Part shown: in pieces, positions 24,373-25,776 of the stretch
How the letters are laid out: the number at the start of each line of letters is the position of its first letter
Position numbering within the stretch: the stretch's first letter is position 1
Origin: Trypanosoma brucei
Taxonomy: Eukaryota
Assembly (NCBI GenBank): GCA_000002445.1
Contig: CP000066.1
Span: forward strand, 544,001-608,000
Direction of reading: 5' to 3'
DNA length: 64,000 nucleotides
Notes under the pieces: generated by a model
What the model was told of the DNA's origin: nothing
Databases searched by the model: none
Seen by the model: only the letters and a program-made list of their open reading frames with translations
Program-made: the position numbers and the translations under genes

Positions 24373-25776
24373 TCAGGGTCCCAAATTATCGGGGTCGTCC
24401 GTAACCACGTCAGACTCCAGCACCCCCAAGGAGAGGAGGGCATTCTTCCCCATAGTTACGAACTCGGTGGGGCCAGACACAAAGGCTAAAGGGGGGGAAG
24501 TGCGGACAAACTCGCCCATAAATTCCTCAACGTCCCACAATGTCGGACGACGCCCACAAGTGGTATGAGGAAGCAACAGGTGGTTTGACATTGCACTTGG
24601 GTCTTGTTTGGTGAGGTAACAGTGAAATCGATACATGAAGCGATCGCCCTGATGGCTGCACCAACGAACAAGGTCATCACACCTTGGAAGGAGTGACTCC
24701 TTCCCATCCACGTGGAGATGAACAACCTGCATCATGGCAATATTCCCCTCATCCGTCGGCACAGGCGATTGCGAACCGTCGAAGAGACGCTTAAGCAAAG
24801 CATACGGTGCGGTCAAGCCGATACCAGCGGAGAGAACAACAACACGTCCCTCCAATTCGAGCAACCGCCTGATGTTATGCGAGAGAGTAAAACGGCCGCC
24901 GACTAAAAGAAGAGGAAATCGCTGTTGCAGACCATTTTTAAGCATCCATGTGCTCCCTCCGCGGCTTCCTTTAGCTTCCTTAATGATCAAAGTGAAGAGA
25001 CAACCCTCCTTGTCCGTCTCAACTACCGTCCACCGACGCCTTAGAAACCTGCCGGAGGGGCCACGGATAGGTAGTTCCAAGTCTACAAACTGCCCAGGTT
25101 GGGGGAAAAGATCCAAAACACCACGGCAACTACTGAAAAAGAACTCCTTTGTGTCATCACACACGTGCTCCGTTCGTGCACAATACACAACTTTGCCTTG
25201 CGTGAAGCCACATGGAAGCAATTGGCTTCCGGACGACCCAAGCATTTCCAAGACCTGCCCACTACGGAGGGAACTGTGAAAGGTTTTAGAACGAATACCG
25301 TCGTTGCTGATAGGCTTCGTCATGGGGCGATCCTTGTTCGCTAAAGCCATCTCGGCGTACGCATCACTGTCGAGAGCAGGACCAGAGGTGTTTAGCGTCA
25401 CATACACTTCACCATGTTCAACCGTGACTGTATGAATGCGCTGCTTCCTCCCCTTGGATCGCACAACCTGCTTGCCATTTCTGTCGATAGTGCCCGATGG
25501 TGTCATCTGCAGCGCCCAGTAGAGACCCTCTCCAGTGTCTAAGGTAATGCGGTACTGATGCCACGGACAAACAATGCAGGGGTGGCCACCCATATCCTCA
25601 ATATCGCCCTCAAGTAACGGCCCCCCATGGTGGTAACAGGCGTTGTCGATAGCATAAAATTGGTTGTTATAAAGGCACACAACAATATTCCGTTCGCCGC
25701 ATTTAATAAGTTGTCGACTTTTATCTTTAAACAGATGGGCCGAACCGACGTGGATACGAACAGGCTCTCCCGTCAT
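24373..25776 (-). CDS. Rieske [2Fe-2S] domain fused to a ferredoxin-NADP(+)-reductase-like FAD/NAD(P)-binding oxidoreductase module.
   Basis: Rieske box 1 CYHHGGPL and box 2 CPWHQY in the first 100 aa. Downstream are an RxYT-like motif (RRRWTVV), GGSTWMLKNG (GGxxS) and AGIGLTAPY (the NAD(P)-binding GxGxxP). Confidence 0.7.
   Translation of the reverse strand: MTGEPVRIHVGSAHLFKDKSRQLIKCGERNIVVCLYNNQFYAIDNACYHHGGPLLEGDIEDMGGHPCIVCPWHQYRITLDTGEGLYWALQMTPSGTIDRNGKQVVRSKGRKQRIHTVTVEHGEVYVTLNTSGPALDSDAYAEMALANKDRPMTKPISNDGIRSKTFHSSLRSGQVLEMLGSSGSQLLPCGFTQGKVVYCARTEHVCDDTKEFFFSSCRGVLDLFPQPGQFVDLELPIRGPSGRFLRRRWTVVETDKEGCLFTLIIKEAKGSRGGSTWMLKNGLQQRFPLLLVGGRFTLSHNIRRLLELEGRVVVLSAGIGLTAPYALLKRLFDGSQSPVPTDEGNIAMMQVVHLHVDGKESLLPRCDDLVRWCSHQGDRFMYRFHCYLTKQDPSAMSNHLLLPHTTCGRRPTLWDVEEFMGEFVRTSPPLAFVSGPTEFVTMGKNALLSLGVLESDVVTDDPDNLGP

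Follow-up and report, generated by a model that had tools for sequence, protein, structure and literature searches.

A Rieske ferredoxin domain fused to an FNR-type reductase module in Trypanosoma brucei, a putative self-sufficient electron donor

A single gene in a 64,000-nucleotide stretch of the Trypanosoma brucei genome (the window; contig CP000066.1, positions 544,001 to 608,000) encodes an RFESD-type Rieske [2Fe-2S] ferredoxin domain joined to a flavoprotein reductase module of the FNR (ferredoxin-NADP reductase) superfamily. We propose, with a probability of about 0.7, that the product is a soluble, self-sufficient NAD(P)H → FAD → [2Fe-2S] one-electron donor for a separate acceptor protein. 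The coding sequence is complete and occupies 24373..25776 of the window, with 467 codons and a TGA stop at 24373-24375 in the list of open reading frames (ORFs). An initial annotation, made from the sequence alone, had placed this 467-residue ORF and its CYHHGGPL and CPWHQY boxes exactly; the strand, which it did not state, is the minus strand, as for all parts of the gene described below. By exact-sequence look-up the product is T. brucei TREU927 XP_843810.1 (AAZ10251.1; UniProt Q57Z95), which carries the database labels 'hypothetical protein, conserved' or 'Rieske domain-containing protein'; for its Leishmania and T. cruzi orthologues, too, annotation goes no further than 'hypothetical' or 'Rieske domain-containing'.

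In the proposed scheme the C-terminal FNR-type module would bind a flavin, most likely FAD, and accept hydride from NAD(P)H; the flavin would hand single electrons to the N-terminal Rieske cluster, and the cluster would in turn reduce a separate acceptor protein. The homology of both modules to proteins that carry out these half-reactions, and the conservation of cofactor-binding residues across Euglenozoa, support this scheme. So does the joining of one Rieske family to FNR-superfamily reductases of two subtypes, which would be difficult to account for if reductases of this kind were not its physiological electron source. Conservation of the entire fusion, at 51-57 % identity in Trypanosoma and 33-42 % in Leishmaniinae and bodonids, and of the gene order around it in free-living kinetoplastid contigs also speaks for it. 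The nearest relatives outside the family—phthalate dioxygenase reductase (PDR)/VanB-type enzymes and flavohaemoglobin (Hmp)—perform an NADH → flavin → metal-centre relay. What the analysis shows is the identity of the domains, the conservation of their ligands and motifs, the fold, the spread of the fusion among organisms and the recurrent pairing of the Rieske family with FNR-superfamily reductases; we infer cofactor occupancy, the direction of electron flow, the nucleotide preference, the localisation and the kind of acceptor. FAD is the flavin of choice by comparison with Hmp, benzoate dioxygenase reductase (BenC) and cytochrome b5 reductase (b5R), while PDR uses FMN.

The Rieske domain, the reductase module and the linker between them

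Residues 9-130 (25387..25752) match the Pfam family Rieske_4 (PF22543, 'soluble Rieske-type ferredoxin') at E=1e-33 with 116.6 bits, past the cut-off of 28.4 for membership and spanning profile positions 2-118 of 119, and residues 13-142 match mouse RFESD (PDB 3D89) at E=7.6e-31. The first Rieske box, C47-Y-H49-H-G-G-P-L (residues 47-54; 25615..25638), contains the predicted cluster ligands C47 and H49, and the second, C67-I-V-C70-P-W-H73-Q-Y75 (residues 67-75; 25552..25578), contains the predicted ligands C70 and H73; the second box has a counterpart in mouse RFESD, C-I-V-C-P-W-H-K-Y. C47, H49, C67, C70, H73 and Y75 are invariant in both of the alignments that were built, A1 with 23 homologues and A3 with 19 that are more diverse and take in euglenids, a diplonemid, a dinoflagellate and an amoebozoan. 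The N-terminal half is clearly a member of the RFESD family with a predicted [2Fe-2S] cluster.

The best NCBIfam match of this domain is to the NirD profile TIGR02378 (E=4e-10), and names given to homologues by JGI include 'nitrite reductase/ring-hydroxylating ferredoxin subunit', both of which would suit a NirD-like or nitrite-reductase-related subunit. The TIGR02378 score, however, is 39.7 bits against a curated cut-off of 74.65, Rieske_4 and RFESD match much better, the protein lacks a NirB-type domain, and the label used by JGI is a general COG term for every small Rieske ferredoxin; we regard a nitrite-reductase role as highly improbable and effectively refuted. NirD and the oxygenase-ferredoxin equivalogs (HcaC and AndAb) were all rejected as assignments for the Rieske domain, with NCBIfam scores far under their curated cut-offs.

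The reductase half falls into two predicted subdomains. The FAD-binding beta-barrel (residues ~195-298; 24883..25194) is supported by a sub-threshold FAD_binding_6 match, the Hmp profile alignment, the AlphaFold2 model and Foldseek; the NAD(P)H-binding Rossmann-like subdomain (residues ~299-467; 24376..24882) is supported by the family profile, NAD_binding_1 in homologues, the AlphaFold2 model and Foldseek. A profile of 11 orthologous C-terminal halves (alignment A2) matches E. coli flavohaemoglobin 1GVH at E=6.5e-15, with positions 9-274 aligned to 156-390, from the start of the FAD domain to the C-terminus, and is followed by matches to BenC, PDR, nitrate reductase and cytochrome b5 reductases. 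NAD_binding_1 is matched individually in 8 of the 11 halves.

The AlphaFold2 model, computed on A1, has a six-stranded barrel (high-confidence strands within residues 196-293) followed by an alternating strand/helix domain; the means of the predicted local distance difference test (pLDDT) over 10-residue blocks are mostly 85-97 across residues ~195-460, falling to 63-67 at residues ~331-350. Foldseek against the PDB places the Hmp FAD/NAD domain 4EH1 at the top for the reductase half (E=5.4e-14, probability 1.0, TM-score 0.77), with carbazole dioxygenase reductase, flavohaemoglobins, b5 reductases and NqrF behind it, and only FNR-family modules among its top matches. Because of the 1GVH profile match, the NAD_binding_1 matches in orthologues and the agreement of the model with FNR folds, the assignment of residues ~195-467 to a diverged FNR-superfamily FAD/NAD(P)H module is secure at the family level. 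The order of domains that had been claimed for the polypeptide, a Rieske centre followed by an FNR-type reductase, is thus the order found by Pfam Rieske_4, the A2 profile and Foldseek. A C-terminal half of some other fold, or Rieske ligands that vary among orthologues, had been named as findings that would speak against the fusion; the profile and Foldseek matches are FNR-like and the ligands are invariant in A1 and A3.

The reductase motifs are present too, as variants, and had been worded loosely. The sequence described as RxYT is R246-R-R-W-T250, with W for Y (within RRRWTV, 25024-25041); GGxxS is G273-G-S275 (within RGGSTWM, 24943-24963); and GxGxxP is G318-I-G-L-T-A-P324 (within S316-A-G-I-G-L-T-A-P324, 24805-24831, aligned to ISAGVGQTPM of Hmp). 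The HMMER alignment of Hmp with the family pairs R-Q-Y-S with R-x-W-T (R247 and T250 in T. brucei), V-S-N-W-L-H with G-G-S-x-W-L-H (S275), S-A-G-V-G-Q-T-P with S-A-G-I-G-I-T-P, Y-L-C-G-P with L-C-G-P (F-V-S434-G-P in T. brucei; F432-V-S-G-P436, 24460-24483), and E-C-F with T-E-x-F. A1 and A3 show no variation at R247, T250, G318, G320 and P436, and almost none at S275 and T322.

Several observations weigh against the proposed function. The T. brucei reductase half taken alone lies under the Pfam cut-offs, with FAD_binding_6 at 19.0 bits versus 21.1 (residues 201-274), and Pfam returns no NAD_binding_1 match in the T. brucei protein itself. T. brucei, T. vivax and T. melophagium have Ser (S434 in T. 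brucei) in place of the Cys of the CGP motif; T. brucei has the GxGxxP Pro shifted by one residue (GIGLTAP); and the C-terminal aromatic residue, which in FNR enzymes normally stacks on the flavin, is missing from every trypanosomatid, the T. brucei tail being acidic (VVTDDPDNLGP). The AlphaFold2 model is of low confidence in the cluster-binding loops (residues 47-74) and in the linker, and gives no distance between the cofactors. Our slight preference for NADH over NADPH as the hydride donor is drawn from analogy with the protein's closest relatives, beside which we note an acidic residue, D357, in H353-L-H-V-D357 (within HLHVDG, 24703-24720) after the second strand of the nucleotide domain. 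The literature and data sets searched yielded no acceptor, localisation or phenotype data for the T. brucei protein.

The sub-threshold or absent Pfam matches and the three motif departures, together with the faster evolution of the C-terminal half relative to the Rieske half (~51 % identity to T. grayi in the C-terminal half, 57 % overall), would fit a reductase half that has degenerated in trypanosomatids to a pseudo-enzyme with a structural or regulatory part to play; the protein would then be a scaffold, or a Rieske ferredoxin and no more, receiving its electrons from another enzyme. We consider this unlikely. The residues at flavin- and nucleotide-contact positions of FNR enzymes—R247, T250, S275, G318, G320, T322, G435 and P436—vary little or not at all among all homologues, confidence in the predicted fold is mostly high, and the T. 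grayi and T. cruzi orthologues retain CGP. In plant FNR, substitution of Ser for the CGP Cys or loss of the terminal aromatic reduces catalysis or changes specificity and does not abolish activity. More generally, the CGP Cys, the GxGxxP Pro and the terminal aromatic of FNR enzymes modulate hydride transfer and access of the nicotinamide, and are not absolutely required; because of this we read the T. brucei departures, by analogy, as tuning rather than inactivation. Free-living kinetoplastid and euglenid orthologues carry GIGITP, CGP and T-E-x-F, and E-x-F forms the C-terminus of the bodonid-like, euglenid and diplonemid sequences.

Between the two domains lies a linker (residues 131-194; 25195..25386) that is mostly disordered in the model, with pLDDT below 50 over residues 149-190, and that is otherwise variable but contains two strongly conserved islands. 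The first, S137-D-x-Y-A141 (SDAYA in T. brucei; 25354-25368), is conserved in A1 and A3 and is present in mouse RFESD. The second, H167-S-S-L-R-S-G173 (25258-25278), which continues as Q-V-L, is also conserved in A1 and A3. As the pattern HS..RSG.V[LF] it is found in both of the fusion classes described below and in the stand-alone, reductase-free relatives P0103, P0148 and P0160; it is not found in the animal-type sequence P0092. This motif may be a docking element or peptide, for either the reductase or the acceptor.

Acceptor, localisation and meaning

Potentials near -150 mV are usual for Rieske clusters of the ferredoxin type, and we therefore expect the acceptor to be an enzyme with non-haem iron, a di-iron centre or haem, and not one of the radical-SAM class. 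The T. brucei protein is probably cytosolic, as judged from its termini: there is no room for a presequence ahead of Rieske_4, which begins at residue 9, the N-terminus MTGEPVRIHVG includes an acidic residue, and the C-terminus ...DNLGP does not resemble a type 1 peroxisomal targeting signal. The absence of an obvious presequence had been remarked on from the start and holds. Tb927.3.2160, the probable identifier of the gene (see below), does not appear in the searched supplementary text of the TrypTag or spatial proteome papers, and our searches found no literature mention of Q57Z95, XP_843810 or Tb927.3.2160 and no characterisation of the architecture. Automatic annotation already names both halves for some orthologues: the T. 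melophagium protein is labelled 'Flavoprotein pyridine nucleotide cytochrome reductase-like', and JGI uses 'ferredoxin-NADP reductase / ... ferredoxin subunit'; the architecture is therefore visible in databases, yet we found no published study of it.

If the protein is read as a full donor unit from NAD(P)H to Rieske cluster, a conserved parasite protein gains a concrete biochemical function that can be put to the test. The reading also implies that kinetoplastids have an acceptor enzyme still to be discovered, and predicts the kind of reductase that serves animal RFESD. What is seen is an FNR-type reductase joined to a Rieske-type instead of a plant-type [2Fe-2S] domain, a rearrangement of known modules and not a new principle of electron transfer.

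A broader reading, which we put forward only tentatively and think less likely to be right than wrong, is that RFESD-type ferredoxins everywhere, including the stand-alone RFESD of animals, stand at the end of a chain NADH → b5R/FNR → Rieske that feeds a conserved eukaryotic metallo-enzyme. It follows 'Rosetta stone' logic: in Euglenozoa the fusion partner of this Rieske family is an Hmp/PDR-like FNR module, and in a dinoflagellate and an amoebozoan, with a related protein in a chytrid, it is b5R, sometimes with cytochrome b5. No functional study of RFESD was found, the literature mentions being incidental only. A relationship of the reductase half to OXNAD1, which would have linked RFESD and OXNAD1 in animals, was considered and rejected: no OXNAD1-like protein is among the profile relatives of the C-terminal half. 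A word-index search of the literature, which was not exhaustive, gave no meaningful co-occurrence of the names RFESD and OXNAD1.

Distribution of the fusion and comparison with known systems

A word-indexed search recovered full-length homologues at 51-57 % identity within Trypanosoma (T. melophagium, T. theileri, T. grayi, T. vivax, T. rangeli and T. cruzi), at 34-43 % in Leishmaniinae, Angomonas, Strigomonas and Phytomonas, at 33 % in Neobodo designis, and at 26-40 % among environmental sequences. Two of the environmental homologues sit on eukaryote-like, one-directional gene arrays, and the contig of one (P0033) keeps the gene order of the window: a CET1-like gene, a 155-residue gene, an EF-2-like GTPase, the Rieske-FNR gene, PP2C and SNF2. 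These two homologues therefore come from free-living kinetoplastids and not from bacteria.

An exhaustive profile search of 1.84 billion representatives returned 198 proteins at E≤1e-30. Among the best 150 of these there are ~50 clusters of full-length fusions, as judged by length and profile coverage, and the rest are mainly stand-alone RFESD-like proteins of 110-230 residues. The more distant fusions with named sources are from the euglenids Entosiphon sulcatum and Euglena longa, the diplonemid Namystynia karyoxenos, the dinoflagellate Durusdinium trenchii (CAK9084917.1) and the amoebozoan Soliformovum irregulare; the chytrid Batrachochytrium salamandrivorans has a related protein with Rieske_4 and NAD_binding_1. 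Rieske_4 comes first in all ten of the distant fusions scanned, and in nine it is followed by FNR-type domains, several over their curated cut-offs; in the tenth, P0070, the scan picked up Rieske domains only. Every kinetoplastid lineage that was sampled keeps the Rieske-FNR order, as do diplonemids and euglenids. The initial annotation had called the architecture uncommon for a eukaryotic nuclear gene, which overstates the case given a fusion that extends across Euglenozoa, a b5R version in a dinoflagellate and an amoebozoan, and the related chytrid protein.

The fusions fall into two classes. The euglenozoan class, to which P0070, P0074, P0076 and P0078 also belong, has the motifs R-x-W-T, G-I-G-I-T-P and T-E-x-F, and the nearest solved relatives of its reductase module are Hmp and BenC; the Euglena longa protein P0073 matches 1GVH at 1.3e-7. 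The second class (the dinoflagellate and amoebozoan proteins, P0169, P0121, P0100 and P0163) has a cytochrome-b5-reductase signature and matches b5R structures at ~1e-25, P0169 doing so at 8e-26. Two further proteins, P0138 (618 residues; Rieske_4, Cyt-b5, FAD_binding_6 and NAD_binding_1 in series) and P0249 (462 residues; Rieske_4 and Cyt-b5), tie the RFESD-type Rieske domain, by their domain content, to the b5/b5-reductase electron chain. No fusion to an oxygenase was found among the longer homologues; P0138 adds cytochrome b5, and P0067 (2626 residues) is a merged gene model running across Rieske-FNR, PP2C and SNF2-PHD.

Five of the non-kinetoplastid sequences in A3 (P0069, P0074, P0076, P0078 and P0086) start with M-G-x-x-C ahead of the Rieske sequence. 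These starts resemble an N-myristoylation/palmitoylation signal, which suggests membrane anchoring in those organisms; the T. brucei protein is without this extension.

Resemblance to several known systems is partial in each case. The first 130 to 140 residues of the trypanosome protein share with animal RFESD the CYH.GGPL and C.VCPWH.Y boxes and the SD.YA motif after the domain, whereas animal RFESD is a stand-alone protein of ~157 residues without a reductase and the trypanosome protein adds the HS..RSG.VL linker and a 270-residue FNR module. The fusions of Rieske_4 to b5R in Durusdinium trenchii, Soliformovum and P0169 have the same Rieske family and domain order, and several have the RSG.VL linker motif; their reductase, in contrast, is a canonical b5R module (RxYTP, GGSGITP, CGPP and a terminal F), and some insert cytochrome b5, as P0138 does. 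The trypanosome protein falls outside the b5R family, with a profile match of only E ~5e-6 and different motifs. Flavohaemoglobin is the best-scoring solved relative of the reductase half by both profile and structure, with RxY[ST], G..S, GxGxxP and CGP motifs that align, but the trypanosome protein has no globin and carries a Rieske acceptor centre instead of haem, and trypanosomatids lack the C-terminal Phe.

AIFM3 (AIFL) is a eukaryotic fusion of an N-terminal Rieske domain to an NAD(P)H flavoprotein with the glutathione-reductase-type fold of two dinucleotide-binding domains (Pyr_redox_2). The trypanosome protein resembles it as a eukaryotic fusion of Rieske domain and flavoprotein oxidoreductase, and differs in having an FNR-type flavoprotein; Pfam gives no Pyr_redox_2 match at E<=1, and the Foldseek fold matches are FNR-type only.

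The likeness to PDR, VanB and BenC is one of operation: each has an FNR-type flavin/NADH module and a [2Fe-2S] domain in one polypeptide, and an NADH → flavin → [2Fe-2S] → partner relay. Their cluster, however, is a four-Cys Fer2 cluster, C-terminal in PDR and VanB and N-terminal in BenC, whereas that of the trypanosome protein is an N-terminal Rieske centre with two Cys and two His, and Pfam finds no Fer2 (PF00111) match in it. By these sequence comparisons the trypanosome protein would work like the class I oxygenase reductases and is not a member of that class.

Reductase and Rieske ferredoxin in one unit had been described as typical of bacterial oxygenase systems, which is imprecise. In the bacterial fused reductases PDR, VanB and BenC the cluster domain is a plant-type Fer2, and where such systems use a Rieske ferredoxin it is a protein of its own. 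The named source organisms recovered for the RFESD/Rieske_4 family are all eukaryotes. A scan for the two-Rieske-box pattern through one genome per species of 185,579 bacterial and archaeal species found no Rieske-FNR fusion; the prokaryotic matches are short and weak and confined to the Rieske core (query residues ~10-84, 27-50 % identity). Of the description as a self-contained electron-transfer unit, then, the domains and the electron-transfer logic stand, and the bacterial-like character and the rarity among eukaryotes do not.

The protein could nonetheless have come from bacteria as part of a classical multicomponent oxygenase of the Rieske or di-iron kind, serving as its reductase-ferredoxin component while another locus of the genome encodes the terminal oxygenase. 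Outside the family, the reductase half is closest to bacterial oxidoreductases of the PDR/VanB type (FNR + Fer2) and to flavohaemoglobins, there are weak NCBIfam matches to the HcaC and AndAb ferredoxins and the GbcB reductase, and the PDB profile search matches BenC and PDR. Yet these relatives match at E≈1e-21 or weaker, versus 1e-74 or better within the family, and all of the NCBIfam matches are far under curated cut-offs; the Rieske half is RFESD-type, and neither the fusion nor a close homologue is found among the prokaryotic genomes scanned. The family is old in eukaryotes, where it spans Euglenozoa and has a second class represented in a dinoflagellate, an amoebozoan and a chytrid; this makes a recent transfer less likely, and we know of no terminal oxygenase in T. 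brucei. We judge such an origin improbable, if a shade less so than the pseudo-enzyme, and retain a eukaryotic RFESD-type donor as the preferred reading.

The few long prokaryotic matches are all from Planctomycetota, and each consists of two neighbouring Rieske genes (7305-9098 and 9133-10182 at locus L047; 7146-9059 and 9072-10121 at L037). Read by eye, the first gene encodes a protein of 597-637 residues whose N-terminal region is hydrophobic and membrane-like and which has a Rieske box in its interior, and the second encodes 349 residues with a Rieske domain and an apparent flavodoxin-like NAD(P)H-dependent FMN-reductase module, which would be a different Rieske-flavoprotein fusion. Bacterial operon context was also tried as a route to the acceptor and was of no help, offering only the Rieske-core matches and these unrelated, adjacent Planctomycetota genes.

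Gene neighbourhood

The gene sits within a long minus-strand array of intron-less genes that runs up to a divergent strand switch near 41.4-43.7 kb, and its identifier is almost certainly Tb927.3.2160 because of the order of the genes that flank it, Tb927.3.2140 (SNF2PH), Tb927.3.2170 (a Ria1-like GTPase) and Tb927.3.2190 (CET1). In this array the neighbour scan places an SNF2 helicase with a PHD finger at 19494-22400, which is SNF2PH (Tb927.3.2140; PMC6893287), PP2C at 22856-23944, an EF-2-like GTPase at 26057-28729, which is the Ria1 homologue (Tb927.3.2170; bioRxiv 10.1101/2020.05.19.104984), and the mRNA triphosphatase CET1 at 30447-31226 (Tb927.3.2190; PMC8311971). The order CET1, small ORF, Ria1-like GTPase, Rieske-FNR, PP2C, SNF2(PHD) is common to T. 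brucei and to free-living kinetoplastid metagenome contigs (loci L002 and L003).

The expectation that no partner would be encoded nearby was correct: there is no oxygenase in the 20 neighbouring ORFs scanned, and no redox partner was found in the neighbourhood within the window, where the neighbours include PP2C, the Ria1 GTPase, SNF2PH, CET1 and SCS-alpha. Trypanosomatid genes lie in long polycistronic arrays whose order does not follow function, and the lack of a nearby partner gene is for that reason uninformative.

Other features of the window were noted in passing. A divergent strand-switch region lies at ~41400-43740, with the long ORFs all on the minus strand up to 41393 and all on the plus strand from 43741 onward; in trypanosomes a region of this kind is an expected site of bidirectional transcription initiation by RNA polymerase II. 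Local GC content falls to 0.39 in positions 10001-12000, compared with ~0.45-0.53 elsewhere in the window. A 618-residue ORF on the plus strand (53683-55539) matches a kinetoplastid-specific PH-like domain (PF25405) at E=7e-46.

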